Positions 7,536-31,831 of a DNA stretch of 34,367 bases are shown here, piece by piece; position 1 is the stretch's first letter; every line of letters begins with the position of its first letter. The notes beneath the pieces were generated by a model, which saw only the letters and a list, made by a program, of their open reading frames with translations, searched no databases and had not been told where the DNA came from. The stretch comes from Actinomycetes bacterium (GTDB taxonomy: Bacteria > Actinomycetota > Actinomycetes > JACCUZ01). Both the position numbers and the translations under genes were made by a program. The DNA is taken from positions 1 to 34,367 of the forward strand of contig JBOGDY010000002.1 in NCBI GenBank assembly GCA_050742955.1, written 5' to 3'.

Positions 7536-7580
7536 CTCGCTCCCTTCGCATGATCGTCTGGCTGGGTCCCGCCCGGTGCC

Positions 7581-8690: not shown

Positions 8691-8726
8691 GAACGGTCCT
8701 CCCTCGACTGCGGGCACGACGTCCAG

Positions 8727-8753: not shown

Positions 8754-8789
8754 ACGATCGGGTCACCCGAGGGAGCTGAGCCAGGGCAG

Positions 8790-9737: not shown

Positions 9738-9748
9738 GGATGCAGACC

Positions 9749-13737: not shown

Positions 13738-13854
13738 CGTGCTTCTTTCCTCCCGCGTCCTGACCAGAGAGTGGAGAGTGGCGACCTTCCTCGATCCGGC
13801 TGACAGGCATCCCGCGCCCGGCACGCCCATCGGATGTGTGTGCCCGCTGAAGTG

Positions 13855-13957: not shown

Positions 13958-13975
13958 GAAGGGTTATACCATTTC
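13958..13975. promoter_or_regulatory. putative operator, 17-bp dyad family (GAAGGGTTATACCATTTC)
   Basis: It matches 12 of 14 specified positions of GAAnGGTAnTACCnTTC. It lies 142-159 nt upstream of bicupin ATG 14117, within an unusually long 379-bp gap. Confidence 0.45.
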
Positions 13976-14116
13976 CCGAGGGCGGTACCGCAGAGAGGAT
14001 GGCCACACAGGGTGAGGCCTGGGTGAGCGGTCGTCACCCTGCCGAGACGGTCCCGGTTGCTCGATCTGCGGTCCGTCGTCGGACCGACGACCCCGACCGA
14101 TGAGAAGAGGAGACCC

Positions 14117-15139
14117 ATGGGCAAGAGCGGACGCGTCTTCGTACGAGGCCTGACCTCCGAGACCTACGGCCTCGGCGAGTTCCGACGCCAACAGCTCGAA
14201 GCGCCGCGGGTTCGCGACGACTCCGTGGTGGTCGACGACGCGAAGGTCGGCCACTCCGGCGACAGTGCCCAGTCACGCACCTGGTGGCGGATCGGCCCGG
14301 GTGATGACGACTTCCTCACCCAGACTCTGCAGGTGCACTTCGTGGAGCTGCCACCGCGATCGGCCAACCACGGCCACGGCCACCAGAACGAGGCCGCGTT
14401 CTACATCCTCGAGGGTGCGGGCTACGAGATCCACGACGACCAACGCTACGACTGGGAGAAGGACGACCTGGTCATCGTGCACACCGACTCGGTGCACCGG
14501 CACTTCAACCCGTACGACGAGAAGGCCGTCGCCCTGGTCATGAAGGCCAAGTGCACCTGGATGTTCATGGGCCTGATCCAGCAGGGCCGCAGCGGACCGG
14601 TCGAACGTGAGACCGAGTTCGGCCCACGGGAGGACTGGTCGGCCATCTGGACGCCCAGCGTCGGCGAGCGGAAGAAGGTCGTCAAGCCCGCCGACACGAC
14701 CTGGGAGAGCACCCCGCTCGGGCGGGTCCGGGTCCTGTCCAGCCCCGACCGTGACGACGTCCGCGTCTTCAGCGTCGACGTGTTCGAGCTGGAGATCCCG
14801 GCCGGGAGCCGGTCCGGCAAGCACTGGAAGATGGCCGACGAGGTGCTCTACGCGGTCGACGGCGAGGGCTACTCGCTGCACTGGGAGGTCGAGGCGGAGA
14901 TCGCCGAGAAGTACTACGCGCGCGTCGCCAAGGAGCCCACGCGCCACGAGTTCAAGAAGGGCGACACCATCTACGTGCCGCAGAACACGGTGGCCCAGCA
15001 CTTCGCCGCCGACGGTTCGCCGGTCCGGCTGCTCTCGGCGCAGAACCGTGTCTTCAAGCACCTCGGCTACGACACGGTCCACTACGTCGAGCCGGCCCCG
15101 GACACCGCTGCCGGCACGCTGACGGCCGCGAACGCCTGA
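14117..15139 (+). CDS. bicupin protein, putative metal-dependent dioxygenase (N-terminal cupin intact, C-terminal cupin degenerate)
   Basis: 340 aa. N-domain motif HGHGHQNEAAFYILEGAG ... VHRHFN (HxHx3-4E...H). The C-domain has GKHWKMADEVLYAVDGEG with only one His. SD GAAGAGGAG lies upstream of the ATG. Confidence 0.72.
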   Translation: MGKSGRVFVRGLTSETYGLGEFRRQQLEAPRVRDDSVVVDDAKVGHSGDSAQSRTWWRIGPGDDDFLTQTLQVHFVELPPRSANHGHGHQNEAAFYILEGAGYEIHDDQRYDWEKDDLVIVHTDSVHRHFNPYDEKAVALVMKAKCTWMFMGLIQQGRSGPVERETEFGPREDWSAIWTPSVGERKKVVKPADTTWESTPLGRVRVLSSPDRDDVRVFSVDVFELEIPAGSRSGKHWKMADEVLYAVDGEGYSLHWEVEAEIAEKYYARVAKEPTRHEFKKGDTIYVPQNTVAQHFAADGSPVRLLSAQNRVFKHLGYDTVHYVEPAPDTAAGTLTAANA

Positions 15140-15232: not shown

Positions 15233-16366
15233 ATGGCATCCGTGGCGATGCCCCTGCTGGCGTTGCGCAGTGGCTACTCGGGCATAGACGTCGGGCTGCT
15301 CACCGCGGCCTCCGCCCTCGCGCAGATGGCGACCCGCCTCGTGCTGGGCCGAGCGATGCGACTCGTGGGCGACTGGGTTCTGGTGGTGGTGGCGGCTGCA
15401 CTCCTGACCGGCTCCAACGGCCTGCTCGCCACTACCGCCGCAGTGGTGCCGTTCACCGTGGCGGCGATCCTCCAGGGTGTGGCGCGTGCCTGCTTCTGGA
15501 CCGGGAGCCAGACGCATGTCGTGCGCGGGGAGGGCACCGCGGTGAGCGCCCTCGCCCAGGTCAACTTCATCTCCAGCATCGGCCTGCTGGCCGGACCGGC
15601 GGTCGCGGGACTGCTGGCCGAGGCGTCCGTCCAGGTGGCGCTGTCGGTGGCCGCCGTCGCCTCGCTGGTCGCCGTCGCCCCGGCGCTGCTGCTCGACCGG
15701 CTCCCGCCGTTCCAGCCTCCGGCGGAGCGGCCTCCGGGCATGCTCTGGCGGCGCCCCGGCGTCTCGACCGGATGCTGGGTCGGCGCCAGCGCCGGCGCGT
15801 GGCGCGGGCTGGTGAGCTCGTACGTGCCCGTGGCACTGGAGACCGCGCGACAGCCCGGGACGACGACAGGAGCCCTCGTCTCGGTCGCCAACGCGGCGTC
15901 GATGGTCGGTGCGATCGTCGTCGCGAGGGTCCACGGCCCATGGGTACGCCGGTCCCTCGTGCTCGGCTGCCTGCTGGCCGGCCTGGCCTTCTGCGTCTTC
16001 GTCCCGCTGGCGGGGGTGGCGTGGGCGGCCGGCCTGGCTCTGGCCGCGTCAGGACTCGGCGCCGGTGCGCTGCAGTCCGTCGGACCCGCCGTGGCCACCG
16101 AAGCCGTCCATCGCGAGGAGCGGGGTGAGGCGATCGCGGCCGCCGGGACCTTCCGTGCGACCGCGCTCTTCGGCGCACCGCTCGTGGTCGCCTCGGCTCT
16201 CACGGTGATGCCCCTCGCTGCGGCCATGGCGATCGTGGGCGTCCTCATCGCCGCGCCGTCCGTTGCCTCGTCCCGTCGTTCGCTGGGCCATGTCACGGAC
16301 GGTGACGCAGCCGTGAGGGACCCGGCACCCACGGCGGTCCACGGTCAGGGCGGAGAACCCTCGTGA
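15233..16366 (+). CDS. MFS transporter (5-prime end uncertain, may begin upstream at about 15155)
   Basis: Multi-TM Ala/Leu/Gly-rich protein with an MFS loop motif LGRAMRLVGD. The first ATG leaves TM1 truncated. The in-frame upstream codons encode DVLAAAGGACVFSFSLG. Confidence 0.72.
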   Translation: MASVAMPLLALRSGYSGIDVGLLTAASALAQMATRLVLGRAMRLVGDWVLVVVAAALLTGSNGLLATTAAVVPFTVAAILQGVARACFWTGSQTHVVRGEGTAVSALAQVNFISSIGLLAGPAVAGLLAEASVQVALSVAAVASLVAVAPALLLDRLPPFQPPAERPPGMLWRRPGVSTGCWVGASAGAWRGLVSSYVPVALETARQPGTTTGALVSVANAASMVGAIVVARVHGPWVRRSLVLGCLLAGLAFCVFVPLAGVAWAAGLALAASGLGAGALQSVGPAVATEAVHREERGEAIAAAGTFRATALFGAPLVVASALTVMPLAAAMAIVGVLIAAPSVASSRRSLGHVTDGDAAVRDPAPTAVHGQGGEPS

Positions 16367-16854
16367 GGCGGTCGCTCGGCTCCACCTCCACCCGCACCTT
16401 CGCGGTCTGGCCCGCGGCACTCGCCCTGGAGCAGGCGTTCACCCGTCGCCGTCCCCACCTGTCGGGCCTCCCGCTGCTCGCCTCCGGATATGCCCTCTAC
16501 CGACTGGCCGGGGCCCACCGGCTGCCGCGGGCCGGCGGCCCACCGGGCATGACCGGGATGCCGGGGCGGCTGGTCGAGGACGGTCCGTACCGGCTCAGTC
16601 GGAACCCGATGTACACCGGCCACCTGGTCTTCCTGGCCGGCCTCGTGGTCACCACCCGCTCGCCCTGGTCGGCCGGCCTCCTGGCGGCCCACGTGCCGTG
16701 GTTCCGCGCACGGGTGCGACGCGACGAGCAGCGGCTGCGGGAGCGGTTCGGCCCGGCGTACGACCACTACTGCGTGCAGGTGCCGCGGTGGCTCCCCGGA
16801 CCTGTCCGCTTCGCCGCACTTGTGCGGCGGCCCGGCACCTGGCAAAGTGCCTAA
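16363..16854 (+). CDS. ICMT/PEMT-family membrane methyltransferase-like protein
   Basis: 163 aa. GPYRLSRNPMYTGHLVFLAG and RDEQRLRERFGPAYDHYCVQVPRW are typical of the isoprenylcysteine carboxyl / phospholipid methyltransferase family. GTGA overlap with the MFS stop. Confidence 0.68.
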   Translation: MRRSLGSTSTRTFAVWPAALALEQAFTRRRPHLSGLPLLASGYALYRLAGAHRLPRAGGPPGMTGMPGRLVEDGPYRLSRNPMYTGHLVFLAGLVVTTRSPWSAGLLAAHVPWFRARVRRDEQRLRERFGPAYDHYCVQVPRWLPGPVRFAALVRRPGTWQSA

Positions 16855-16868
16855 TGGTCAGTCCATTG
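16852..16868. promoter_or_regulatory. palindromic box TAATGGTCAGTCCATTG abutting the RBS of the bicupin-AAA-ThDP operon
   Basis: AATGG-N5-CCATT has the same arm spacing as the 17-bp dyad family. It overlaps the ICMT stop codon and ends at the SD GGAGGA (16868-16873) of GTG 16877. Confidence 0.4.
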
Positions 16869-16876
16869 GAGGATTC

Positions 16877-17944
16877 GTGAGCACCCGCACCACGACCAAC
16901 GTGACGCACTACCACGTCCAGAAGGGCCGACGCGCGAAGTTCATCGAGGACTGGCGGTCGAACCACCGGGACATCGTGGCCGTCGAGGACGTCGTGATGC
17001 GCGACACGGCTCGGGGCAGCCGCATAGGGGTCTACTGCGGCACCGACGGCGACCGGCCGACCCGCACGATGGACGCCCTCGCCCACGAGTTCGAGCCGGG
17101 CAGCCGCACGACGGTGCACCGGCACTCATGGGACGCGATGGTGTTCGTGGTCGCCGGCTGGGGCTGGACGGAGATCGACGGAGAGCGCGTCGACTGGGGG
17201 CCGGGTGACTCGCTGCACCTGCCGGCGTGGGCCTGGCACCGCTCGGGCAACGACGGCACGACGACGGCCCGCTACCTGACCTTCTCCAGCGAGCCGATGC
17301 TCGACACGATGGGGATGTCCGTCCTCGAGGAGGCGGGCGACACCGAGGTGGCCGAGCTGCCTGCACGGCCGGCGTTCACGTCCGAGCTGCCGGGTGACGA
17401 GCCCTACGCGCGCCGGGTCCGGCGTCTGGGCCGGGAGCAGACAGCGCGCCGCAACGGCCGACTCCACACGTCCTGGGACGACCTCGAGCTGCTCAACACC
17501 CCACGCGGGACACGCACCACCTTCCTGCTCGACCGGGCGATCGGCTACCAGGCATCCGGCATCACCATGGCGATGTTCGAGATCGGTCCCGGGCGTGCGC
17601 AGTCGATGCATCGCCACCCTGGCGAAGCCTGGCTCTATGTCGTGGAGGGCAGCGGTCACAGCTATGTCGGCACCGAGCCCGAGGGTGGGAAGAACCATCC
17701 GTGGAAGAAGGGCGACCTGATCGTCGTCGACCACTTCCTGTGGCATCAGCACTTCAACGACGACCCCGACAGGACCGCCAAGGTGGTCCGGATCCACATG
17801 TTCGACAGCCTTCTGGAGACGATGCGCGTCCTGACCGACCCGCTGGTGCTCTTCGAGGAGCCCCCGGAGCACATCAGGGACCGGCAGGCAGGCGACCCCT
17901 CCACCATCGACTGGCCCGCCCTCGAGCGGCCCACCTGGCCCTGA
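16877..17944 (+). CDS. gentisate 1,2-dioxygenase-family bicupin (ring-cleaving dioxygenase, substrate unknown)
   Basis: 355 aa from GTG 16877. Both cupin domains are intact: VHRHSWDAMVFVVAGWG...LPAWAWHRSGN and MHRHPGEAWLYVVEGSG...FLWHQHFN, which are GDO-like HRH...WH.H.N motifs. Confidence 0.8.
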   Translation: MSTRTTTNVTHYHVQKGRRAKFIEDWRSNHRDIVAVEDVVMRDTARGSRIGVYCGTDGDRPTRTMDALAHEFEPGSRTTVHRHSWDAMVFVVAGWGWTEIDGERVDWGPGDSLHLPAWAWHRSGNDGTTTARYLTFSSEPMLDTMGMSVLEEAGDTEVAELPARPAFTSELPGDEPYARRVRRLGREQTARRNGRLHTSWDDLELLNTPRGTRTTFLLDRAIGYQASGITMAMFEIGPGRAQSMHRHPGEAWLYVVEGSGHSYVGTEPEGGKNHPWKKGDLIVVDHFLWHQHFNDDPDRTAKVVRIHMFDSLLETMRVLTDPLVLFEEPPEHIRDRQAGDPSTIDWPALERPTWP

Positions 17945-17952
17945 CCACCGCA

Positions 17953-18846
17953 GTGGACACCGCCCGGCTGCCTCCCGGCGTGGGGGGACTGCACGTCCTT
18001 CCCGCCGACCACCACGACGGTCCGTGGGACAGCATCATCGTCCCTGCGGGCACCAAGCAGCGGCTGTTGGGGGCTGCCCTGCTGGTGCTGCGGCACGGCC
18101 GTGCCCTCTCCCAGCTGGCCGGGCCGCCGCACGGCCTGGTCGTCCTCGCCGGCCCGCCCGGGACGGGCAAGACCACGCTCTGCCAGGGGCTCGCGCAGGT
18201 GGCCGCCCGGACAGTGGCGCACAAGGGTGCGACGACGTTCGTGGAGATCGACCCGCACGCGTTCCCCAGCGAGATGCTCGGCGAGAGCCAACGCGCCGTC
18301 CGCCGACTCTTCACCGAGACGCTGCCCGAGCTGGCAGCGCGCCGACCGCACACCGTCGTCCTCGTGGACGAGATCGAGGCCCTCGCGGTGCGTCGCAGGA
18401 CCGCCTCCTTCGAGACCAACCCGGTCGACGTGCACCGGGCGACCGACGCGCTGCTGGCCGGTCTGGACCTGTTGCGAGCCTCGAGCCCGAACGTCCTGCT
18501 GCTCGCCACCACGAACTTCGTCGCGGCGGTCGACGAGGCGTTCCTGTCGCGCACCGACCTGGTGCTCACCCTCGACCTGCCGGACGAACAGGCGCTGACA
18601 GCCATCTTCGCGGCGACCCTGCGCGAGCTCGCTGTCCTCTGGCCGGACCTGCGCGAGCTGGCGCTGGACGACTCGCTGCACGCCAAGCTGGCCGCCACCT
18701 GTGTGGGTCTGGACGGTCGCCGCGCGCGCAAGGTGGCTCTGGCCGCGCTGGCGCGCGAGCCACGACTGGCCCAGGACCCGACCCAGCTCAGCGGGGACGA
18801 CCTCCTCGCCGCCGCCGAGGACATGGCGGCGGAGGACCGTCCATGA
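17953..18846 (+). CDS. AAA+ ATPase, Pch2/TRIP13-like core without an N-terminal domain
   Basis: Walker A GPPGTGKT (18151-18174) and Walker B VVLVDEIE (18355-18378). Blocks FVEIDPHAFPSEMLGESQRAVRRLF, NVLLLATTNFVAAVDEAFLSRTDLVLTLDLPD and GLDGRRARKV are present. The start is uncertain (GTG 17953 or 17980, or CTG 17941). ATGA overlap with the next gene. Confidence 0.85.
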   Translation: MDTARLPPGVGGLHVLPADHHDGPWDSIIVPAGTKQRLLGAALLVLRHGRALSQLAGPPHGLVVLAGPPGTGKTTLCQGLAQVAARTVAHKGATTFVEIDPHAFPSEMLGESQRAVRRLFTETLPELAARRPHTVVLVDEIEALAVRRRTASFETNPVDVHRATDALLAGLDLLRASSPNVLLLATTNFVAAVDEAFLSRTDLVLTLDLPDEQALTAIFAATLRELAVLWPDLRELALDDSLHAKLAATCVGLDGRRARKVALAALAREPRLAQDPTQLSGDDLLAAAEDMAAEDRP

Positions 18847-20609
18847 CGGCCGTCGAGGCCGTGGTGCCTGTGCCCCCGGAGTCGTCCGCCGGCTGGGGCA
18901 GCGACCTCGTCGTGGACCTGCTCCGCGACCTCGACGTCCCGTACCTGCCGATGAACCCAGGCTCGTCGTTCCGCGGGCTGCACGACTCGGTGGTCAACCA
19001 CGGCGGCAACCGATGCCCGCAGCTGCTGCTCTGCCTCCATGAGGAGATCGCGGTCTCGCTGGCGCACGGCTGGGCGAAGGCCACCGGCCGTCTCGGCCTC
19101 GCCGCGGTCCACGACCTGGTCGGGCTCATGCACGCGTCCATGGCGGTCTACAACGCCTACTGCGACCGCACTCCCCTCCTGCTCCTGGGCGGGAGCGGGC
19201 CGGTGGACCCGGCGCTGCGCCGTCCGGTGGACTGGACCCACTCCGCCACCACCCAGGCCGAGCTGGTCCGCGACTACGTGGTGTGGGACGGGGAGCCCGC
19301 GACGCCACAGGCGGCGGTCGCGGACCTGGTCCGGGCCCGGCAGAGGGCGATGTCTGCCCCGCGCGGCCCGGCGTACGTCTCCCTGGACGCGGGCCTGCAG
19401 GAGTGCCGGCTCGACGTGCCGGTGCGGCTGCCCCCGGTACACCGTTTCGCACCCGCACCACCGATGGCCCCGAACCCGCAGTCGCTCGACGACGCGGTCA
19501 CCGTCCTGGCATCGGCCGAGCGGGTGGTGGTCGTCGCGGGTCGGGTCGGACTGGGCCCCATGGTGACGGAGCCGTTGGCCGCGGTGGTCGAGACGCTCGG
19601 TGCGGCCTACATGGACGAGCGGAACTGGTCGGTGCTGCCGACCAGGCACCCGCAGAACTGTTCCGGGGACGCCGACCTGCTCGCGGAGGCCGACGTCGTG
19701 CTCGCCGTCGACGTGGTCGACCTGCCGGCGCTGCTACAGCCCAGGAGCCGCAGGCGAGCGCAGGCGCAGCACGACCCGGCCCCGTCGCCCACCGTCGTCG
19801 ACCTCTCGTACGGCGACCTCGGGCTGCGCTCCTGGACCAACGCACACGGCGCGCCGACGCCCCGCGACATCGCGCTCCTCGCGGATCCGGTCGTCGGTCT
19901 CCGCATGCTGGCTGACCTGCTCGCGGACGCCGTGGACCCGACGCGGGCGCAGGCCCGCCGCCGCGCCGTGACCGCCCGGGCGAGTGCCCTGCGGGTCAGT
20001 CAGCGCGCCGCGGTCGATGCCCGGTGGGCCGACCGGCCGATCGCGCCCGCGCGGCTGGTCGCGGAGACCTGGAACGCCGTACGGGAGGTCCCCCACCTGC
20101 TGTGCCTGCGCAACACCCGCACCTGGCCGGAAGGCGTGTGGGAGCTCCCCGGCGCCGGCGGCTACCTGGGGCACTCCGGTGGCGGAGGGGTCGGCTACGG
20201 GCCGGGCGCCCTGGTCGGCGGCGCCCTCGCGGCCCGGGACAGAGGTCAGCTCGGTGTGGGCATCATCGGCGACGGTGACCTGCTCATGGCGGCCGGAGCA
20301 CTGTGGACCGCCGTGCACTACCGCGTGCCCGCCCTGGTGGTGGTGAACGACAACGGCTCGTTCTACAACGACGAACCGCACCAGGCGGCAGTGGCCCGCG
20401 AGCGGGGTCGGCCGGTGGACAACAGCTGGATCGGCATGCGCATCGCGGACCCGCCGGTGGACATCGCGGCCCTGGCCCGCGGTTACGGCTGCTGGGCGGA
20501 GGGCACGGTCGACGACCCGGACGACCTTGCGGCAGCACTTGCCCGCGCCACGGCCGCGGCCGTGCAGGGCGCGACGGCAGTGGTGCACGTCCGGACGGCG
20601 CCGCAGTGA
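18843..20609 (+). CDS. thiamine-diphosphate-dependent enzyme (acetolactate-synthase-like three-domain fold), paralog 1
   Basis: 588 aa. Cofactor-activating Glu in CLHEEIAV. ThDP motif GDGD(20268-20279)-x26-NDN. Divergent N-domain (NPGSSFRGLHDS, HDLVGLMHAS in place of TSGPGATN). Confidence 0.85.
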   Translation: MTAVEAVVPVPPESSAGWGSDLVVDLLRDLDVPYLPMNPGSSFRGLHDSVVNHGGNRCPQLLLCLHEEIAVSLAHGWAKATGRLGLAAVHDLVGLMHASMAVYNAYCDRTPLLLLGGSGPVDPALRRPVDWTHSATTQAELVRDYVVWDGEPATPQAAVADLVRARQRAMSAPRGPAYVSLDAGLQECRLDVPVRLPPVHRFAPAPPMAPNPQSLDDAVTVLASAERVVVVAGRVGLGPMVTEPLAAVVETLGAAYMDERNWSVLPTRHPQNCSGDADLLAEADVVLAVDVVDLPALLQPRSRRRAQAQHDPAPSPTVVDLSYGDLGLRSWTNAHGAPTPRDIALLADPVVGLRMLADLLADAVDPTRAQARRRAVTARASALRVSQRAAVDARWADRPIAPARLVAETWNAVREVPHLLCLRNTRTWPEGVWELPGAGGYLGHSGGGGVGYGPGALVGGALAARDRGQLGVGIIGDGDLLMAAGALWTAVHYRVPALVVVNDNGSFYNDEPHQAAVARERGRPVDNSWIGMRIADPPVDIAALARGYGCWAEGTVDDPDDLAAALARATAAAVQGATAVVHVRTAPQ

Positions 20610-22081
20610 GCGCCCGGACCGAGGTGGCGGCCACGGCCCCCGAGGCCCCGGACCGGTTGATGTACGTCGGCGGCAGATGGGAGCCGGCCGCGGACGGCGC
20701 TCGGGTCCAGTCGGTCGACCCCGCGACCGAGGCCGTCATCGCGACGGTCCCCGAGGCCGGGCCGACGGACGTCGACCGGGCTGTCGGGGCGGCCACCGCG
20801 GCCGCTCCGAGCTGGTGCGACCTCGGCTGGGCGGCCCGGGCGGCGATGCTGCGGCAGCTGGCGGGTCGGATCGAGGAGCATGCCGAGGACCTGGCCCGGC
20901 TGGACGTCCGCGACGGCGGCGCGCCCCTGACGGGCATGCGGGCTGACGTGCACAGCGCGGTCGGTGAGATCCACTACTACGCGGGCATCGCTCCGCAGAC
21001 GGGCGGCAGCACCGGGCCGGTGAGTCCCGAGAGCCTGTCCTACACGCAGCGGGAGCCCTACGGCGTCGTGGGCCGGATCATTCCGTTCAACCACCCGTTC
21101 AAGTTCGCCGCGGCGAAGGTCGCCGCACCCCTTGCCGCCGGCAACGCCGTGGTGCTCAAGCCCGGTGAGCAGACGAGCCTGTCCGCTCTCGAGCTGGCCC
21201 GCCTGGCGCACGACGTCCTGCCCGCCGGCGTGCTCAACGTCGTGACCGGTCGCGGTCCCACGACGGGTGCCGCTCTGGTGTCGCACCCGGGGGTGCCCCG
21301 CATCGCCTTCACCGGCTCGGTCCCCTCCGGCCGCGCCGTCCTGCACGCCGCCGCCGACGAGATCAAGCACGTCTCCCTCGAGCTGGGCGGGAAGAACCCG
21401 ATCATCGTCTTCCCCGACGTCGATGTCGCACGGGCGGCCGGAGCCGCGGTCGCGGCGATGAACATCGCCCGGTGCACGGGACAGTCGTGCGGCTCCACCT
21501 CCCGGCTCTACGTGCATGACGAGGTCTACGACGCCTTCCTGGCCGCGCTCCAGGCCCGGCTCGCCGAGCTGCGCATCGGTGACCCGATGGACGAGCAGAC
21601 GCAGGTCGGCCCACTGGCCTTCGCCGACCACCACCGGCGCGTGACGGGGCACGTGGAGACCGCCCGGGCCGAGGGTGCGACGGTGCTGTACGGAGGCGGG
21701 CGTCCCGCCGGCCTCCCCCGCGGCTTCTACCTCGAGCCCACCGTGCTGACCGACCTCACCGATGACATGACGGTGGTGCGGGAGGAGGTCTTCGGGCCGG
21801 TCATGTCGGTGCTGCGGTGGCGGGACGTGGACGACGTCGTACGCCGGGCCAACGACACGCCGCTCGGGCTCACAGCCAATGTCTGGACCCGCGACCTGTC
21901 GACCGCCCATCGGGTGACGCGCTCGCTGCAGGCCGGCTACGTCTCCGTGAACGGCAGCGGTCGGCGACCGCTCGGCATGCCCTTCGGCGGTTGGAAGCAC
22001 AGTGGTCTCGGCCAGGAGAACGCACTGGCGGAGCTCCAGTCCTACACCAGGGAGAAGTCGGTGACGGTGACCTTGTGGTGA
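20606..22081 (+). CDS. NAD(P)+-dependent aldehyde dehydrogenase
   Basis: 491 aa. ELGGKNP, catalytic Cys in GQSCGSTSR, FTGSVPSGR, and EEVFGPV. GTGA overlaps at both ends. Confidence 0.95.
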   Translation: MSARTEVAATAPEAPDRLMYVGGRWEPAADGARVQSVDPATEAVIATVPEAGPTDVDRAVGAATAAAPSWCDLGWAARAAMLRQLAGRIEEHAEDLARLDVRDGGAPLTGMRADVHSAVGEIHYYAGIAPQTGGSTGPVSPESLSYTQREPYGVVGRIIPFNHPFKFAAAKVAAPLAAGNAVVLKPGEQTSLSALELARLAHDVLPAGVLNVVTGRGPTTGAALVSHPGVPRIAFTGSVPSGRAVLHAAADEIKHVSLELGGKNPIIVFPDVDVARAAGAAVAAMNIARCTGQSCGSTSRLYVHDEVYDAFLAALQARLAELRIGDPMDEQTQVGPLAFADHHRRVTGHVETARAEGATVLYGGGRPAGLPRGFYLEPTVLTDLTDDMTVVREEVFGPVMSVLRWRDVDDVVRRANDTPLGLTANVWTRDLSTAHRVTRSLQAGYVSVNGSGRRPLGMPFGGWKHSGLGQENALAELQSYTREKSVTVTLW

Positions 22082-22713
22082 ACGATGACCCGGCCGCGCA
22101 CGAGGAGCTCCTGGACGCCGACCGCAGCGTGCTCGTGGTGTTCGACATGCTGGAGTGCTACCGGCAGGCGGCCGAGGAGGCTGGCGCCGTCCCTGCGGTT
22201 CAGCGGTTGATCGAGGGCTGCCGACGACACGGGGTCCCGGTCGCGTGGGCCAGGGCCGACCACAGAGCCGACGGTCGTGACTTCGCCCGGACGCTGGCGG
22301 ACGTGGACAACCGGCACCGGCCCTTCGGACCGGACAACCCCCGGCCGACCGGTCCACCGCACGGCTCGGGGTCGCCGCAGTACCGCTCATTGGTCGAGCT
22401 GGGGCAGCGGGACGACGACTACGACGTGCCCAAGCACCGCTGGTCGGCGTTCCACGGCACCCACCTGGACACGTCTCTGCGTGCGCGTGGCATCGACACC
22501 GTGCTGCTGGTGGGCGGCTCCACTCACGTGGGCGTCGCCTCCACCGCCTATGCAGCCCGCGACCTCGACTACCAGGTCGTCGTCGTGTCCGACGGGCTGA
22601 CGGGCCGGCAGCCCCAGCGCGACTTCTTCGTGCAGCAGGTGCTGCCACGGGTCGGCCGCGTCCGCACCGCCGACCAGGTGCTAGCGGCCATGGACAAGGA
22701 AGGTCATCGATGA
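22078..22713 (+). CDS. isochorismatase-family hydrolase lacking the catalytic Cys (EntB/PhzD-like variant)
   Basis: 211 aa. Asp in LVVFDM and Lys in PKHRWSAFHGT are retained. The Cys position reads GGSTHVGVAST (Gly codon at 22531-22533), compare EntB AHIGC. Confidence 0.78.
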   Translation: MNDDPAAHEELLDADRSVLVVFDMLECYRQAAEEAGAVPAVQRLIEGCRRHGVPVAWARADHRADGRDFARTLADVDNRHRPFGPDNPRPTGPPHGSGSPQYRSLVELGQRDDDYDVPKHRWSAFHGTHLDTSLRARGIDTVLLVGGSTHVGVASTAYAARDLDYQVVVVSDGLTGRQPQRDFFVQQVLPRVGRVRTADQVLAAMDKEGHR

Positions 22714-24476
22714 CAGCGGCTTACACGCCGTACGAGGAACCCGCCTGGGGTTCCGACGTCATGGTGGACGTGCTCAGGCAGCTCGGCTTGAGATACGTCA
22801 GCCTCAACCCAGGCTCGTCGTTCCGGGGCCTGCACGACTCGCTGGTGAACTACGGCGCGGACCAGGTCTCGATGATCGAGTGCCCGCACGAGAAGGTCGC
22901 CGTCGGCCTGGCCCACGGCTATGCCAAGGCCAGCGGAGAGCCGATGGCGGTCCTCCTGCACGACCTCGTGGGGCTGCTGCACGGCTCGATGGGCGTCTAC
23001 TACGCCTACATCGACCGCTGCCCGGTGCTCGTGCTCGGGGGGTCCGGACCGGCCGACCACGTGCGCCGCCGGCCCAACATCGACTGGATCCACTCGGCGA
23101 ACGTGCAGGGTGAGGCCGTCCGGGCCTACACGAAGTGGGATCACGAGCCACGCTCCATCGCCTCCGTGCCGACGGTGCTCGCGAGGGCTCACCGGATCGC
23201 ACGGGAGGAGCCCGCGGGGCCGGTCTACGTGGCCCTGGACGCCGGGCTCCAGGAGGATGCGCTCGAGGCTCCGGTCCCCCTCGACGACCTGCCCCGGCTC
23301 GCACGCGAACCCAGCGCGCTGGCACCCGAGGCCACGGCGCTGCGAGACCTGGCCCGTCGACTGTGCACCGCCGAGCGCCCGGTCATGGTGCTCGGCTACC
23401 CCGGTCGGGACCCTGCGGCGTTCGACCAGCTCGTCCAGCTCGCCGAGCTGGTCGGCGTCGGCGCCGTGGACACGCACTGGCGACTGAACTTCCCCAACCG
23501 CCATCCCTTGAACGTGACTGGGACCGAGGCGCTGGAGAACAGCGACTGCGTCCTGTTCGTCGACGTGAAGGACATGGGGAAGGCGACCCAGAGCCTGGAG
23601 TCGACCACACGTCGGATCACCACCCGTCTCGCGCCGGGGACTCAGGTTCTCGACGTCGGGTTCAACGACGTCGGGATCTCGTCATGGAGCGAGGACTACG
23701 CGGAGCTCGTGGCGACCGACCTCCAGGTGACCGCCGACACCTCGGTCGCGCTGCCGATGCTGCTGGCCGAGTGCCGCAGTCTGCTCGCGGACGAGGCATC
23801 GGACCGAGCAGCCGGCCGAGTCGCCTGGCGGGACCGGCTCGCCGGCTGGCACGAGCAGACGTGGAAGGGATGGCAGCGCCGGGCCGAGGACGTCACTGAG
23901 TCCGTACCGGTGTCCACGGCGAGGCTTGCCGCCGATGTCTGGGACGTCGTGCGCGAGCACGACTGGGTGCTCAGCGCAGGGACGGCTTCGGAGTGGGCGC
24001 TGAGACTCTGGGACTTCGACCGCCCCTACCGCCACCCCGGTCGCCAGCTCGGCACGGCCACCCAGATCGGCATCTCCCTCGGTGTCGCGCTCGCGCACAA
24101 GGGCACCGGCCGGGTCGTCGTCGACCTCCAGCCGGACGGCGACCTCATGTTCGACGTGGGGGCCCTGTGGGTCGCGGCCCGCTACGAGCTCCCGCTCCTG
24201 GTGGTGATGTTCAACAACCGGGCGTACTACAACGACTGGGAGCACCAGGAGCGGCTGGCCAGGCAGCGCGGAACCCCGGTGGACAGGGCGCACATCGGCA
24301 TGTCGATCTCCGAACCGGAGCCGGACTTCGCCACCATCGCCGAGGGCTTCGGCTGGTGGGCGGAGGGCCCGGTCACCGACCCCGGGCAGGTCCGTGAGAG
24401 CGTCGCCCGAGCAGCCGAGCACGTGCTCGCGACCGGCCGGCCGGCCCTGGTGGACGTGGTGTGCCAGCCGAAGTGA
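22710..24476 (+). CDS. thiamine-diphosphate-dependent enzyme, paralog 2
   Basis: 588 aa, colinear with 18843-20609 (WGSDVMVDVLRQLGLRYVSLNPGSSFRGLHDS, HDLVGLLHGS). Glu in CPHEKVAV. The ThDP motif is altered to PDGD (24132-24143)-x26-NNR. Confidence 0.85.
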   Translation: MTAAYTPYEEPAWGSDVMVDVLRQLGLRYVSLNPGSSFRGLHDSLVNYGADQVSMIECPHEKVAVGLAHGYAKASGEPMAVLLHDLVGLLHGSMGVYYAYIDRCPVLVLGGSGPADHVRRRPNIDWIHSANVQGEAVRAYTKWDHEPRSIASVPTVLARAHRIAREEPAGPVYVALDAGLQEDALEAPVPLDDLPRLAREPSALAPEATALRDLARRLCTAERPVMVLGYPGRDPAAFDQLVQLAELVGVGAVDTHWRLNFPNRHPLNVTGTEALENSDCVLFVDVKDMGKATQSLESTTRRITTRLAPGTQVLDVGFNDVGISSWSEDYAELVATDLQVTADTSVALPMLLAECRSLLADEASDRAAGRVAWRDRLAGWHEQTWKGWQRRAEDVTESVPVSTARLAADVWDVVREHDWVLSAGTASEWALRLWDFDRPYRHPGRQLGTATQIGISLGVALAHKGTGRVVVDLQPDGDLMFDVGALWVAARYELPLLVVMFNNRAYYNDWEHQERLARQRGTPVDRAHIGMSISEPEPDFATIAEGFGWWAEGPVTDPGQVRESVARAAEHVLATGRPALVDVVCQPK

Positions 24477-24480: not shown

Positions 24481-25767
24481 TCAGGGCTTCGGACCCTGGG
24501 AGACCGGGCGGGCGTCCGGCGGGGTCGCGGCCGGCTCGCCGGCCGACGGGTCCGCGAGCCCGGTGTACTCCCGGACCTCGTTGGGCCGGGCTGCGAACCC
24601 GAGCGCGACCAGCACCGGGCCCAGACCACCCAGGGTGAGCGCAACGACCGGCCCCAGCGCGCCCGCGATGACGCCGACCGCGACGTCGCCCAGCGCCGGC
24701 CCGCCGCGCGAGGACATCTGGTAGAACGCCTGGACTCGGCCGCGCAGCTGGTCCGGCGTCTCGATCTGGACCGCTGCGTGCCTGATGGTCGTCGCCATCG
24801 CATCGAAGGCTCCGAGGAGCAGCGCGGCTGCGAGGGCCGCGAGGAAGAGATGCACCTGCACCAGCAGGATCGCGCTCAGGCCATAGAGGCCCGTGGAGAA
24901 CAGCAGCACCCGGCCCAGGCGGCGGCTGCGCTCGACGACCCGGAAGACGGTGTAGGTCGCCAGCAAGGCGCCCGCCGACGGCGCACTGCCGAGCAGGCCG
25001 TATCCCGTCGCCCCCACGTGGAGGATGTCGACGGCCAGGGCAGGAAGGATCACGCGGTATGCGCTGAAGACCGTGGCGGACAGGTCCAGGCACATGAGCT
25101 TCCAGATCAGCGGGCGATGCGCGACGTACCGCGCGCCCTCGGCGATCGAGGCGAACACCGAGGCGCGCGGACCTTCTCCGTGCGCCAGGCCCGGAATTCT
25201 CAGCACCGCCAACACGGCGATCAGCACCGCGTAGCTCACCACGTCCACCAGGTACATCAGGCCCGGACCACCGAGCGCGATGAGCAGGCCGGCCATCGCC
25301 GGCCCGACCAGCACGGCGATCTCCCGCGACGGATTGAGCAGGGCGATGGCCTGGCCGAGCTGCTCGCGTGGCACGAGCGCGGGGATCATCGCTTGGCGCG
25401 CCGGTTGGTCGAACGTCGCTGCGGCCGTGGTGAGGAGGGCGCAGAGCAGCACGTGCCACACCTGAGCGCGGTCCGCGAGCGTGACGATGGCGAGGCCCGC
25501 GGCAACCAGCAGGGACACGAGCTGGGCCCACTGAAGCAGCCGCCGCCGGTCGTGGCGATCGGCCAGAGCGCCCCCGAGGGGGCTGAGTACCAGCAGTGCG
25601 ACGGCCTGCGCCGCACCCAGCAGGCCGGTCTGGGCGATCGACCCGGTCAGGTCGTAGACCTGGTAGAAGGTCGCGGCGACCGTGCCGCGGGTCCCGATCT
25701 GGGAGAGGACGACGCCGGACCAGTAGAGGTTGAAGTCGCGGTTGCGCAGGACGACCGGCAGGGCCAT
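24481..25767 (-). CDS. MFS transporter, MFS_3/EntS-like family
   Basis: 428 aa. RNRDFNLYWSGVVLSQIG N-terminus and GGALADRHDRRRLL loop. About 12 predicted TM segments. Confidence 0.85.
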   Translation of the reverse strand: MALPVVLRNRDFNLYWSGVVLSQIGTRGTVAATFYQVYDLTGSIAQTGLLGAAQAVALLVLSPLGGALADRHDRRRLLQWAQLVSLLVAAGLAIVTLADRAQVWHVLLCALLTTAAATFDQPARQAMIPALVPREQLGQAIALLNPSREIAVLVGPAMAGLLIALGGPGLMYLVDVVSYAVLIAVLAVLRIPGLAHGEGPRASVFASIAEGARYVAHRPLIWKLMCLDLSATVFSAYRVILPALAVDILHVGATGYGLLGSAPSAGALLATYTVFRVVERSRRLGRVLLFSTGLYGLSAILLVQVHLFLAALAAALLLGAFDAMATTIRHAAVQIETPDQLRGRVQAFYQMSSRGGPALGDVAVGVIAGALGPVVALTLGGLGPVLVALGFAARPNEVREYTGLADPSAGEPAATPPDARPVSQGPKP

Positions 25768-25784: not shown

Positions 25785-26936
25785 TCAGCTGATCGGGACG
25801 AGGGACAGCTTGGCGGGATCCATCCGCAGATAGACGGTGGAGCCCTGCTCGATCGACACCGCAGGGTTGCCGCGAGCACGGAGCTCATGTTTCCCGACGT
25901 CCACGACGTGATCCACCGCGTCACCGAGGAAGGCCCGGGTCAGCACCGTCCCCGACCACTCGTTGTTCACCTCGCCGCCGCGTGAGGTGGTGCTGATCTC
26001 CATCGCCTCGGGACGGATCGACACCACGACCTCGGTGCCGGCGGGCATCTGTGCCCCCGAGCTGAGCTCCAGCGAACCGTCTGCCGTGTCGACGCGGTAC
26101 CGCTCGCCGTCCCGAGCCACGACCGTCCCTGCGATGAAGTTGGACGTGCCGATGAACTCTGCGACGAACTTGCAGTTGGGGTTCTCGTAGACGTCGCGGG
26201 GCCGGCCCAGCTGCATCACGTTGCCCTCTTTCATGACCGCGATGGTCGTCGAGAGGGCCAGTGCCTCGATCTGGTCGTGGGTGACGTAGACGGAGGTGAT
26301 CCCGAGGTCACGTTGCAGCCGCTTGAGCTCGTAGCGCAGCGATTCCCGCAGCTTGGCGTCGAGGTTGGACAGCGGTTCGTCCAGCAACAGCAGTGGAGGC
26401 TCGATGACGACGGCCCGGGCGAGGGCGAGGCGTTGCTGCTGGCCACCGGAGAGCTTGGTGGCCTGACGGTCGGCGTAGCCCGCCAGCTCCATGGTCTCCA
26501 GGACCTTCATCACACGCTCGGAGACCTCCCTCTTGCCGAGCCGCTCTCTGCGCTTCTTGACCTGAAGGGGAAACGCGACGTTGTCGAAGACCGACATGTG
26601 CGGCCAGATGGCGTAGGACTGGAAGACCATCCCGAGGCCGCGCTCGTTGGCCGGCACGTTCACCTTGCGCTGACCGTTCCGCGCCGAGAACAAGGGCTTG
26701 TCAGCCAGCGTGATGGCCCCGGCGTCGGGTCGCTCCAGGCCCGCTATGGAACGCAGCGTCGTGGTCTTGCCGCAGCCTGATGGCCCCAGCAGTGTGAAGA
26801 GCTCGCCGTTCTCGACCTCGAACGAAACGTCGTTGACGGCGAAGACGCGCTCAGGCGCCTCGGCTCCGCTCGCCTTGGACCGACGACTGCGACGCTCAGC
26901 GTCAAAGGTCTTCACCAGGTTGTCGATGCGCAGCAT
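25785..26936 (-). CDS. ABC transporter ATP-binding protein (PotA/FbpC/MalK-like, with C-terminal TOBE-like domain)
   Basis: Walker A GPSGCGKTT, signature LSGGQQQR and Walker B LLLLDEPLS. 383 aa. Confidence 0.95.
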   Translation of the reverse strand: MLRIDNLVKTFDAERRSRRSKASGAEAPERVFAVNDVSFEVENGELFTLLGPSGCGKTTTLRSIAGLERPDAGAITLADKPLFSARNGQRKVNVPANERGLGMVFQSYAIWPHMSVFDNVAFPLQVKKRRERLGKREVSERVMKVLETMELAGYADRQATKLSGGQQQRLALARAVVIEPPLLLLDEPLSNLDAKLRESLRYELKRLQRDLGITSVYVTHDQIEALALSTTIAVMKEGNVMQLGRPRDVYENPNCKFVAEFIGTSNFIAGTVVARDGERYRVDTADGSLELSSGAQMPAGTEVVVSIRPEAMEISTTSRGGEVNNEWSGTVLTRAFLGDAVDHVVDVGKHELRARGNPAVSIEQGSTVYLRMDPAKLSLVPIS

Positions 26937-26965: not shown

Positions 26966-28720
26966 TCAGTCTTGACGGAGCCCGACCTTGGCGCCGAGCT
27001 TGTAGGCCACCGTGACGAGAAACACCAGCGTGAGGACCATGACGACGCCGAGCGCGGCCAGCACGGTGAACTGGCCGTTCTCGAACTGCTCGAAGATCAG
27101 GATCGACAGCACCTCAGTGCCCGGGCTGTAGAGCAGGATCGAGCTGGACAGCTCGCGGAAGGACACCACGAGGATGTAGATCCATCCAGCCAGCAGGCCC
27201 GGCGAGAGCAGCGGGAGCAGCACCCGTCGGAACGTCTGCCACCAGCTCGCTCCGCTGACCTGTGCCGACTCCTCGAGCTCGGAGGAGATCTGGTGCATGG
27301 ACGTCACGGCGTAGCGCATGCCGTACGGCATGTACCTCGTGACGTAGGCGATCAGCAGGATGAACAGGGTGCCGTAGATCGGGATGGGGCTGCGCAGGTA
27401 GACGAACGACAGGGCGAGCCCCAGCACCAGTCCCGGGATGACGAGCGGCACGAAGGCGAACTGGTCGATAAGCGAGCGGCCGGGGGCCCGTGAGCGCACA
27501 ACGATCCACGCCGCCACCGACATGCCCGCCATCACCAGTGTTGCGGACCCGATGCCGAGGATGAGCGAGTTCTTCAGAGCGGTCGTCGCCTGCGACAGCT
27601 CCATCAGGTCGCGGTAGTTGTCGAGGGTGACGCTCTTGAACGCCTCCATGGAAGGGGCTTGGTAGTAGGGCAGGACCGAGGTGTAGAGGAGCACGAGCAG
27701 CGGCGCGATCACCGTGAGGCAGAAGTAGAAGATGATGGCGACGCCCATGACGGGTCGCCACTTGCCGAGTTCCATGGGGCGCGGGCGGAAACCCTTACCT
27801 GTGACCGTCTGGAAGCTCTTTCCCGAGCGTCCCACGAGGTTGGAGATCGCAACACCGAGCATCGCCAGCACCAGCAGCCCCACGGCGAGTGAACCCGCGG
27901 CCGCGAGGTCCGGCGGGTAGCTGCGCAGCACGAAGTAGATACGGCTGGTGAAGACGTAGATGCCGTTCTGCAGGCCGAGCAGCGCCGGCACCTCGAAGCT
28001 CTCCAGGCTCCGGACGGCCATGATGAGAACCGCGGCGACGATCGCCGGGCGGGTGAGCGGGACGGTGATCTTGCGGAAGACCTGCCAGCGCGTGGCGCCG
28101 GACATGAGCGCCGACTCCTCGAGCGACGGATCCATCGACCGGAACGCCGCGACCATGAGGAGGAACACGATCGGCGACAGATGGAGGCCTTCGACCCACA
28201 CCATGCCCCACAGGGTGAACACGTCGAGCAGCCCCGGCCCGAACACCGGTTCCAAGGCCTTGTTGAGCAGGCCGATGTCGGGGCTGGCCAGGAAGATCCA
28301 GGAGATGGTGTAGAGGATGCCAGGGATGATCAGTGGGATGATCGACGCGGAGAAGAACAAGGCCTTGAACGGCACGTCGGTCCGCACGTTCAGGTAGGCC
28401 AACGACGTGCCGACCACGAGCGACAGGATCGCGGCGCCGGTCGCGAACAGCAGCGAGTTGCTGATCAGCTCGCCGATGCGATTGTTGCCGTAAGCCCGCT
28501 GGAAGCCGTCCAGGGTGAAGCCGGCGTCGTCGAAGAACGTTCCCCACAGCAGGTAGTACAGCGGCACCAGAGCCAGGTAGCCGATCAGGATCGCCACCGT
28601 GGCGGAGATCAGCACCTTGGGCGTAGGCACCCACCGCCGTCGCCGACCCCGCGTCAGCCCCTGCACCTCGGGGACCACGGGGGCGGCGGTCGTCGTGTCA
28701 TCGTCTGTGGCGGTGGTCAT
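26966..28720 (-). CDS. ABC transporter permease, fused double-domain (FbpB/ThiP-like)
   Basis: 584 aa from ATG 28720 (SD GGAGAGGGAAG). Two tandem BPD-transport permease modules, each with an EESA..SGA EAA-loop (LEESALMSGATRWQ and LEESAQVSGASWWQ). Confidence 0.9.
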   Translation of the reverse strand: MTTATDDDTTTAAPVVPEVQGLTRGRRRRWVPTPKVLISATVAILIGYLALVPLYYLLWGTFFDDAGFTLDGFQRAYGNNRIGELISNSLLFATGAAILSLVVGTSLAYLNVRTDVPFKALFFSASIIPLIIPGILYTISWIFLASPDIGLLNKALEPVFGPGLLDVFTLWGMVWVEGLHLSPIVFLLMVAAFRSMDPSLEESALMSGATRWQVFRKITVPLTRPAIVAAVLIMAVRSLESFEVPALLGLQNGIYVFTSRIYFVLRSYPPDLAAAGSLAVGLLVLAMLGVAISNLVGRSGKSFQTVTGKGFRPRPMELGKWRPVMGVAIIFYFCLTVIAPLLVLLYTSVLPYYQAPSMEAFKSVTLDNYRDLMELSQATTALKNSLILGIGSATLVMAGMSVAAWIVVRSRAPGRSLIDQFAFVPLVIPGLVLGLALSFVYLRSPIPIYGTLFILLIAYVTRYMPYGMRYAVTSMHQISSELEESAQVSGASWWQTFRRVLLPLLSPGLLAGWIYILVVSFRELSSSILLYSPGTEVLSILIFEQFENGQFTVLAALGVVMVLTLVFLVTVAYKLGAKVGLRQD

Positions 28721-28774
28721 CTTCCCTCTCCAGGGGGAGCCTGGCCTGTGTCCTCGCTCGCGCACTCTTGGTGT

Positions 28775-28809
28775 CGGTGATACCCGCGGGGTTGGGTGGG
28801 GTACCACCG
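28775..28809 (-). other. intercistronic RNA stem-loop between the SBP and permease genes
   Basis: The minus-strand RNA has CGGUGGUACCC - 13 nt loop - GGGUAUCACCG. That gives 11 bp including one G-U pair, with no U-tract after it. Confidence 0.35.
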
Positions 28810-28812
28810 GCC

Positions 28813-29940: not shown

Positions 29941-29978
29941 GCTGGTCCGTCCCGTGCCTTCGGAAGCGATGTCGGTCA

Positions 29979-31814: not shown

Positions 31815-31831
31815 TGACGGTCTAACCATTG
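31815..31831 (-). promoter_or_regulatory. AATGGT-type box (minus strand CAATGGTTAGACCGTCA) overlapping the dehydrogenase stop codon, upstream of the cupin-ABC genes
   Basis: It matches about 10 of 14 specified positions of the dyad family. It shares CCAATGGT..TTAG with the box at 13855-13872. Confidence 0.35.

Follow-up and report, generated by a model that had tools for sequence, protein, structure and literature searches.

A conserved bicupin/TRIP13-type ATPase gene pair with an optional thiamine diphosphate enzyme cassette in a predicted aromatic-carboxylate island of Actinomycetota

The DNA stretch analyzed here, referred to as the window, comprises 34,367 nt of contig JBOGDY010000002.1 from an Actinomycetes bacterium and has a G+C content of about 70%. 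An operon of six genes (g1–g6) spans positions 16877–24476 on the + strand. The first two genes, which code for a double-cupin protein (bicupin, g1) and a TRIP13-type AAA+ ATPase (g2), are the main subject of this report. They are followed by genes for a thiamine diphosphate (ThDP) enzyme (ThDP1, g3), an aldehyde dehydrogenase (ALDH, g4), an isochorismatase-fold hydrolase (g5), and a second ThDP enzyme (ThDP2, g6). The open reading frames (ORFs) are located at 16877–17944, 17953–18846, 18843–20609, 20606–22081, 22078–22713, and 22710–24476. As read from the sequence, the stop codon of g1 (TGA, 17942–17944) is separated by 8 nt from the GTG start codon of g2 at 17953. The remaining junctions are 4-nt start/stop overlaps (ATGA 18843–18846, GTGA 20606–20609, GTGA 22078–22081, ATGA 22710–22713), and g6 ends only 4 nt from the stop codon of a convergent MFS_3 gene. 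An initial annotation, made from the sequence alone, had proposed six co-directional genes with four 4-nt overlaps and a first gap of at most 8 nt, expressed as a single unit. The junctions proved exact, and the overlaps together with the 8-nt gap bear out one translationally coupled operon. A generic scan for promoters and terminators called neither a sigma-70 consensus promoter nor a terminator inside the operon. The six family calls of that annotation, including "TRIP13-like" for g2 and "Cys-less" for g5, were each confirmed by Pfam, PDB relatives, and the alignment of the THVGV motif. Its statement that the operon has no described counterpart also held, since none of the six proteins passes any curated NCBIfam cut-off, and the open-access literature yielded no description of a bicupin-TRIP13 pairing or of a characterized cluster with these six genes.

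To determine which of the genes belong together, an alignment of the AAA+ orthologues served as query against a single genome of each species, and a relative was found in at least 536 species genomes. The neighborhood counts given below refer to the 80 best loci of this set and were obtained by tblastn with the window proteins. They rest on tblastn because an ORF caller based on third-position G+C (GC3) mis-called several genes, for example as an antisense ORF over g2. All of the 80 loci are from Actinomycetota except one, a Burkholderiales metagenome-assembled genome (MAG; L073). The bicupin gene lies directly upstream of the AAA+ gene in 80/80 loci. A 4-nt overlap joins the two genes in 32 of 78 pairs, and almost all of the remaining pairs are spaced by 24 nt or less. 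The same picture emerged when the search started from the bicupin: in both orthologues found (75% identity), an AAA+ gene overlaps the stop codon. The accessory genes were counted only in the 66 loci with at least 6.5 kb of downstream DNA. None of ThDP1, ALDH, hydrolase, and ThDP2 was present in 34 of them, and 13 contained the core with the hydrolase alone. Both ThDP paralogs occurred in 15/66 loci and the complete six-gene set in 3/66. The conserved unit is, consequently, the bicupin with the AAA+ ATPase, and g3–g6 are an optional, lineage-specific add-on. The ThDP1-ALDH-(hydrolase)-ThDP2 block is an insertion between this core and a conserved MFS_3/ABC transport block. The object of interest is thus the undescribed bicupin/TRIP13 pair and not the six-gene set.

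These counts bear directly on two earlier proposals. The initial annotation had suggested gene-neighborhood analysis as a test of joint conservation and had asked whether a quartet of AAA+, two ThDP proteins, and isochorismatase recurs across Actinomycetota. The test established the invariant bicupin and AAA+ genes; the quartet is shared by a minority of loci only, and the six genes are not conserved as a unit. The same annotation had proposed that the AAA+ protein may be an ATP-driven activase or assembly factor of a ThDP1/ThDP2 heteromer, which would perform C-C cleavage or carboligation after ring cleavage, with all six genes acting as one functional unit. Such a role would agree with the 4-nt overlap of g2 and g3 in the window and with the position of ThDP1, which starts less than 600 nt from the AAA+ stop codon in the 15 loci where it is present. 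It would also agree with look-ups anchored on ThDP2, in which three orthologues (74–75% identity) were all found within islands carrying the bicupin and AAA+ genes. However, the AAA+ protein is 64–78% identical across the related loci, most of which have no accessory gene or the hydrolase only, so its function is conserved without a ThDP protein. Moreover, the catalytic Glu and a Mg-ThDP motif are intact in each of the ThDP paralogs, and both resemble self-sufficient decarboxylases. ThDP2 was also found without ThDP1 (L039, L051). The invariant adjacency, set against the 15 loci with the ThDP pair, indicates that the AAA+ protein partners the bicupin and not the ThDP enzymes. Since the obligate partner of the ATPase is the bicupin, the idea of a ThDP activase loses its basis; it was rejected on the neighborhood counts, and we regard it as very improbable.

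The g1 product (16877–17944, + strand) is a 355-aa bicupin with two Cupin_2 stretches in Pfam and two complete metal sites. The N-terminal domain contains a 3-His site (H81, H83, H121) like that of gentisate 1,2-dioxygenase (GDO), and the C-terminal domain contains a 3-His-1-Glu site (H245, H247, E250, H290). Both metal motifs are invariant in 28 orthologues. The HRH motif at 81–83 and H121 align with the active-site cupin of GDO (3bu7, E 7e-18; 2d40, E 3e-12). Length is fixed at about 355 aa among the orthologues, which are 74–85% identical across orders. With the gentisate and salicylate 1,2-dioxygenases (class III ring-cleaving enzymes), g1 shares the bicupin fold of about 355 aa and the HRH...H 3-His motif. 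It differs from GDO in that its second cupin is likewise equipped with a full 3-His-1-Glu site, of the kind known from oxalate decarboxylase or quercetinase, and in that it is obligately coupled to an AAA+ protein; we know of no characterized GDO with such coupling. In NCBIfam, g1 falls well short of the GDO equivalog TIGR02272 (54.1 bits, cut-off 442.1) and scores 71.2 bits against the model of 5-aminosalicylate dioxygenase (MabB; cut-off 650). Public pipelines label the g1 orthologues "gentisate 1,2-dioxygenase". This label, like "acetolactate synthase" for the ThDP proteins, is without support. The AlphaFold2 (AF2) model of g1 has a pLDDT of 76.5, and a Foldseek search with it returned OxdC, MncA, and salicylate and gentisate dioxygenases, at TM ~0.5. 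Residues 1–6 of the model have a pLDDT below 50 (mean 45 for residues 1–10), yet T5, T7, H11, and Y12 are invariant. A conserved N-terminal tail that is predicted to be disordered would suit as a handle for threading into an ATPase pore.

The g2 product (17953–18846, + strand) is a 297-aa bacterial TRIP13-type AAA+ ATPase, identified by Pfam (AAA) and PADLOC (TRIP13). The PADLOC TRIP13 model PDLC00915 matches it over profile positions 7–294 of 302 (E 5.6e-93, 309.6 bits), and PCH-2/TRIP13 proteins are the best solved relatives in PDB. The protein contains Walker A (GPPGTGKT) and Walker B (VLVDEIE) motifs and the NPVDVHRATDA, TTNF, and DEAFLSRTD motifs. It is 43–46% identical to TRIP13 genes of plasmid operons of the CBASS (cyclic oligonucleotide-based antiphage signaling system) type, in which the order is AAA, two small proteins, CBASS oligonucleotide cyclase, and effector. 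Walker A/B, the G-[EQK]-[ST]-Q loop, NPxDxHRATDA, TTNF, D.AF.SR.D, and G.DGR..RK are common to g2 and the CBASS TRIP13 proteins, and in this alignment g2 keeps all motifs of the ATPase and of the pore-loop region. A library clustered at 50% identity retains about one full-length representative (63% identity) of the clade that is linked to the bicupin, and the next relatives are at 40–48%. As the clade collapses in this way, it is a compact branch of bacterial TRIP13 under strong constraint.

The accepted role of TRIP13/Pch2 is that of a dedicated remodeler of HORMA proteins, in eukaryotic checkpoints and meiosis and in bacterial CBASS immunity. For this reason, it was relevant to look for the usual partners. 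Pfam and PADLOC were run on the window and on a small number of representative proteins of other loci, and neither gave a HORMA match for any window protein. Across the related loci, defense genes were checked by tblastn alone, with small CBASS proteins and the cyclase as queries. The small proteins of two CBASS loci, which sit between TRIP13 and cyclase, are annotated as "hypothetical", and are presumed to be HORMA proteins, had no match in the window and 85 loci; this is a weak test, as HORMA proteins diverge fast. Apart from the TRIP13 match of g2, the PADLOC scan of the window detected no family of its collection, and thus no CD-NTase (the cyclase of CBASS) or effector, and the cyclase query had no tblastn match in the window and 85 loci. 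The Pfam annotation of the neighbors of g2 is metabolic or transport throughout. Judged by its sequence, g2 is a full-length bacterial TRIP13 that is detached from the usual HORMA/CD-NTase context of CBASS. Like the TRIP13/Pch2-HORMA module of type III CBASS (Cap6 with Cap7/Cap8 and CD-NTase), it is encoded beside its presumed client. In contrast to that module, its neighbor is a 355-aa metalloprotein, no HORMA protein, CD-NTase, or effector was found, and the surroundings are a GntR-regulated catabolic and transport island and not a defense island. Its clade also forms a single tight cluster at 50% identity, apart from the CBASS TRIP13 proteins (63% versus at most 48%).

A decayed defense locus, in which the AAA+ gene would be a remnant of type III CBASS placed by chance beside unrelated metabolic genes, was therefore weighed as well. 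The strong PADLOC match points that way, and so do the closest plasmid homologues, since in the plasmid collection all relatives of g2 were of the CBASS type and none was linked to a bicupin. A remnant is hardly compatible with intact ATPase motifs, or with an invariant and translationally coupled bicupin neighbor in numerous actinobacterial orders and in a Burkholderiales MAG. This explanation was rejected on that adjacency and on the failure to find CBASS partner genes by PADLOC and tblastn, and its probability is practically negligible. At 310 bits on the PADLOC TRIP13 model, g2 could be flagged as a CBASS component by defense-system finders, and finders that use this profile will mislabel the AAA+ genes of such pairs.

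The explanation which we consider best, with a probability of roughly 0.55, is an operon of two layers: a core of bicupin and TRIP13-type unfoldase, responsible for ring cleavage and its ATP-driven reset, and the accessory cassette g3–g6. The first layer would consist of a two-metal bicupin related to GDO and salicylate 1,2-dioxygenase, translationally coupled to a hexameric AAA+ unfoldase of the TRIP13 type. The second contains two paralogs of the ThDP decarboxylase type, an ALDH, and a Cys-less YecD-like hydrolase. According to this explanation, g1 would cleave a hydroxylated aromatic carboxylate. The ATPase would grip the bicupin, probably by the N-terminal tail, and ATP-driven partial unfolding would reset it by freeing a wrongly bound or oxidized metal, or a dead-end ligand, from the buried cupin site. 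The ThDP enzymes would convert 2-oxo-acid ring-fission products to aldehydes, the ALDH would oxidize the aldehydes to acids, and the g5 hydrolase would cleave an enol-ether or ester intermediate. The operon would be one of several units under a GntR-type operator, in an island for uptake and catabolism of aromatic (poly)carboxylates.

The rationale for a reset comes from MncA, the manganese bicupin of cyanobacteria, in which the metal is fixed at folding. Because this metal is kinetically trapped once the protein is folded, a cupin metal would be exchangeable only by unfolding. Like g1, MncA has two buried metal sites, and it is the second-best structural match of the g1 model; it differs in being periplasmic, in having no ATPase partner, and in sequence (identity of about 17%). 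By analogy, the TRIP13-type ATPase might act as an enzyme reactivase similar to Rubisco activase (Rca) and EutA. As with the AAA+ proteins Rca and CbbX and the ASKHA proteins EutA and DdrAB, its gene adjoins, and is co-transcribed with, that of a metallo- or cofactor enzyme, and the role proposed for it is likewise to lift an inhibited state by means of ATP. The invariant adjacency and the frequent 4-nt overlap are traits of this kind, a likeness and not a membership, as g2 comes from the TRIP13 clade, unlike Rca and CbbX, and the proposed client is a cupin, a type of enzyme not known to have a reactivase. Further support by analogy comes from a second cupin and ATPase couple. In many related islands, a third bicupin (about 360–395 aa) adjoins a 490–535-aa ATPase of the reactivase family EutA (ASKHA; Pfam EutA E 1e-110). 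Examples are L061:18292–19479 (bicupin) with the next gene, L040:579–2177 (EutA-like), L086:15402–17953, and L087:19375–21068; the pair is absent from the window. If the interpretation is true, the presence of TRIP13 and EutA-like couples in one regulon would imply that cupins are routinely poisoned by the substrate, which is probably an aromatic polycarboxylate with chelating properties, and that ATP-driven repair is built into the pathway.

Several points weigh against this explanation. Adjacency is the only link between g2 and a remodeling of g1. The term "ring-cleaving dioxygenase" is itself a prediction, because g1 is far under the GDO cut-off, and a Foldseek search with a g1 model of moderate quality cannot tell a dioxygenase from bicupins of the oxalate decarboxylase or MncA type. 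To our knowledge, no AAA+ reactivase of a cupin enzyme has been described, and the open-access literature yielded none. The counts lean towards close relatives, as they come from the 80 loci with the highest scores out of at least 536. Finally, the sequences fit the ThDP paralogs equally well as a heteromer, which they may form, or as two separate enzymes. A stronger proposal is put forward as tentative, with the odds rather against it. It holds that an unfoldase of the TRIP13 type was exapted from HORMA remodeling and now serves, independently of HORMA proteins, as the dedicated reactivase of a ring-cleaving bicupin with two metals, whose metal or ligand it would reset.

A different function of the pair is suggested by what TRIP13 does in bacteria. 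Ye et al. reportedly showed in 2020 that bacterial TRIP13 resets a conformational-switch protein, and this role in CBASS is its only known bacterial function. The bicupin could, then, be a ligand- or metal-sensing switch in a HORMA-like role, reset by TRIP13, and the pair could regulate the transporters and enzymes of the island. Cupins often act as sensor domains, and the strong conservation of both proteins, with the fixed length of g1, fits a protein-protein machine. On the other hand, both cupin domains have complete metal motifs of the catalytic type and the N-terminal one aligns with the active-site domain of GDO, the island is already provided with its own regulator and operator of the GntR type, and none of the possible output partners occurs in every locus. 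We consider a sensory role unlikely.

The two-layer explanation, if correct, has consequences beyond this locus. Under the stronger, tentative proposal, g2 would be the first activase of a cupin enzyme, and g1 would be the first client of the TRIP13 clade that is not a HORMA protein. A tight TRIP13 clade, present in at least 536 species genomes and locked to a metalloenzyme, would mean that this ATPase family serves a broader set of clients. The pair would also provide a tractable bacterial system for the study of substrate recognition by TRIP13. By analogy to Rubisco activase, metal sites that are buried in cupins may have to be repaired at the expense of ATP. The regulon would mark an uncharacterized and widespread actinobacterial route for aromatic carboxylates.

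The accessory cassette contains two ThDP proteins of 588 aa each, encoded by g3 (18843–20609, + strand) and g6 (22710–24476, + strand), which are 40% identical over the full length. The catalytic Glu is located in an HEE motif in g3 and in an HEK motif in g6, and the Mg-ThDP motifs are GDGD...NDN and PDGD...NN, respectively. Pfam recognizes TPP_enzyme_N and TPP_enzyme_C in both proteins, with the central TPP_enzyme_M at 18.4 and 25.6 bits, below the cut-off of 30.4. The best NCBIfam profile is the uncharacterized PRK08327, with 226 and 250 bits versus a cut-off of 456. The benzoylformate decarboxylase (BFDC) model gave 128 and 144 bits (cut-off 493) and IolD 48 versus 715, and in NCBIfam neither protein is an equivalog-level member of BFDC, acetolactate synthase (ALS), IolD, Xsc, HACL, or Gcl. 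The nearest relatives are benzoylformate decarboxylases, and the best PDB match of g6 is such an enzyme (E 2.6e-27). The g4 product (20606–22081, + strand) is an NAD(P)-dependent aldehyde dehydrogenase of 491 aa (Pfam Aldedh, PF00171, 522 bits). It keeps the catalytic Glu (ELGGKN at 259) and Cys295 (GQSCG) and scores below all equivalog cut-offs in NCBIfam (BADH, 478 versus 593 bits). The arrangement resembles the mandelate pair of MdlC (benzoylformate decarboxylase) and MdlD (benzaldehyde dehydrogenase), as a BFDC-related ThDP enzyme adjoins an intact ALDH, but here two 40% identical ThDP paralogs flank the ALDH, and their best profile is PRK08327, below its cut-off. With the adjacent ALDH, a plain route from 2-oxo acid to aldehyde to acid appears more parsimonious than C-C cleavage or carboligation on a heteromer.

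The g5 product (22078–22713, + strand) is a Cys-less hydrolase of the isochorismatase fold, of the YecD/3txy type (Pfam Isochorismatase, 110 bits). It keeps D23 and K119, and in the position that holds the nucleophilic Cys in amidase-type members of the family it carries Gly (THVGV against adICV; T-x-x-C-V otherwise). The closest solved relatives are the uncharacterized 3txy (E 6.5e-20) and YecD (2e-19), followed by VibB/PhzD/EntB (2e-10 to 8e-07). The closest relatives are, hence, not characterized isochorismatases, and the NCBIfam profile PRK11440 gave 94 bits against a cut-off of 195. In many relatives, the g5 orthologue lies directly 3′ of the AAA+ gene, without ThDP genes; the order in the Mycobacterium-type loci is bicupin-AAA-isochorismatase-cupA, where cupA is the gene of a second bicupin. 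It is the bicupins, and not the ThDP genes, with which the Cys-less hydrolase is associated in many relatives.

Upstream of g1, the palindromic box AATGGTCAGTCCATT is located at 16853–16867 (+ strand). It has a TGGTnnnACCA-like form, which we take to fit an operator of the GntR/FadR type. The initial annotation had placed a palindrome on the first ribosome-binding site (RBS); the box is real, and it abuts the RBS GGAGG (16868–16872) rather than covering it. On the other side lie promoter-like elements read from the sequence, CTTGTG and CAAAGT with an 18-nt spacer (16819–16848, + strand), within the 3′ end of the preceding gene. The layout CTTGTG...CAGAGT also precedes the box in L001, L002, L006, L009, L010, L012, and L014. 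The elements at 16819–16848 may be the promoter of the operon; the sigma-70 scan is silent here, and their conservation across loci is the sole basis. Operator-like boxes occur at four sites of the window (13959, 16853, 31816, 32746), which gives seven matches on both strands versus 0.59 expected, and box variants precede the g1 orthologue in many related loci. Because of this excess and this recurrence, AATGGTCAGTCCATT is not a chance match. The additional AATGGTnnGnCCATT copies (13959–13973, 31816–31830, and 32746–32760) are all intergenic and precede cupA/Rieske genes, the operon of a monocupin and substrate-binding proteins (SBPs), and 3-hydroxyisobutyrate-dehydrogenase-like and MFS_3 genes, respectively.

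In the related loci, 192 box sites were found in 76/80. They lie upstream of cupA (34), the bicupin (25), ABC SBP genes (20), and the GntR/FCD regulator gene itself (5), and also before Pht5-like/Zn-ADH genes and the third bicupin. The palindrome is a conserved predicted operator that defines a regulon. As the operator is shared across units, the six genes would form one transcription unit of a larger regulon for catabolism and transport of aromatic carboxylates. No GntR gene was found within the window, which means that the regulator has its gene at another place.

Three genes of the same regulon precede the operon on the + strand, all assigned by Pfam. The first two code for the second bicupin, cupA (14057–15139), and an MFS_1 transporter (15233–16366), and the box at 13959–13973 lies in front of cupA. 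The cupA gene is found within 10 kb in 39/80 loci, at 74–87% identity. A PEMT/ICMT-like membrane protein of 163 aa (16363–16854) directly precedes g1. A gene of the latter family recurs in at least nine loci, including the Burkholderiales one (L073:14967–15416).

The operon is followed by a convergent transport block on the − strand, also assigned by Pfam. It contains an EntS-like MFS_3 protein (24481–25767), an ABC ATPase with TOBE (25785–26936), a fused ABC permease of 633 aa (26966–28867), and two tandem SBPs (28813–29979 and 29979–31115) that PDB matches describe as FbpA/AfuA/P5PA-like. A monocupin gene (31121–31762, − strand) also belongs to it, with the operator-like box at 31816–31830. 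The genes of the block are conserved in 42–53 of the 80 loci. The nearest solved relatives of the SBPs bind Fe3+, hexose phosphates (AfuA), or pyridoxal phosphate (PLP; P5PA), and the ligand class is ambiguous. These transporters, together with the structural similarity of g1 to MncA, raise the question of metal handling: the bicupin might be an MncA-like metal store or metallochaperone from which the TRIP13-type unfoldase frees or exchanges trapped metal, tied to the Fe3+-type ABC and EntS-like MFS transporters. MncA is match 2 of the g1 model in Foldseek, both metal sites of g1 are complete, Fe3+-binding proteins are the closest relatives of the SBPs, MFS_3/EntS-type transporters are present in the island, and the Burkholderiales locus contains a VIT1 Fe/Mn transporter. 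Yet the same SBP family binds sugar phosphates and PLP, and the ABC and MFS genes occur in only 43–53 of 80 loci. The regulator is of the GntR/FCD type and not Fur or DtxR, and catabolic enzymes dominate the regulon (LigJ, LigK, Rieske oxygenase, decarboxylases). We find metal handling rather improbable.

The left flank of the window contains genes of aromatic catabolism. A Rieske oxygenase (12451–13830, − strand) is very similar to isophthalate dioxygenase (PDB 9INA, E 1.5e-135; PMC12445078). The Rieske gene is present within 10 kb in only 10/80 loci, and ferredoxin and reductase are encoded with the oxygenase in the flanks. Its operon on the − strand continues with genes at 11930–12454, 11089–11913, and 10223–11071; the partners are a 174-aa protein without family match, a PanB-like protein (ketopantoate hydroxymethyltransferase family), and an alpha/beta hydrolase. 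Such a gene set is unusual for a phthalate-type pathway.

Further to the left, there are genes for LigJ 4-oxalomesaconate hydratase (5780–6802, E 5e-149), LigK aldolase (6846–7535, above the NCBIfam equivalog cut-off), a zinc alcohol dehydrogenase (Zn-ADH, 7581–8717), two 4,5-dihydroxyphthalate-decarboxylase-like paralogs (4786–5778 and 8805–9728), and an RpiB-like isomerase (9749–10195). No ring-cleavage enzyme of the LigAB type was found in this block (4786–10195), and one of the bicupins may supply 4-oxalomesaconate. At the left window edge (548–2950, − strand), pcaH and pcaG (protocatechuate 3,4-dioxygenase) and a pcaB-like cycloisomerase gene are located. The presence of pcaHG/pcaB together with LigJ/LigK means that the window holds parts of the ortho and the 4,5-cleavage lower protocatechuate routes. 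The flanks thus share with the iph/pht clusters and the LigJ/LigK lower pathway the isophthalate-dioxygenase-like oxygenase, the 4,5-dihydroxyphthalate-decarboxylase-like pair, LigJ, LigK, and pcaHG; we know of no described cluster of either kind that contains the bicupin-TRIP13 pair or the ThDP cassette. Further genes in the islands of the relatives code for TctA/TctC transporters, for an aromatic hydroxylase, and for proteins of the class II aldolase type. The most consistent guess for the substrate of the island, based on its gene content, is an aromatic (poly)carboxylate.

The only non-actinobacterial locus of the best 80, the Burkholderiales MAG L073 (4055–15416), contains a bicupin-TRIP13 pair of 61–62% identity. 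It adds an IclR regulator, TctC/TctA/TctC, an EutA-like ATPase, two SBP_bac_6 proteins, and the VIT1 Fe/Mn transporter.

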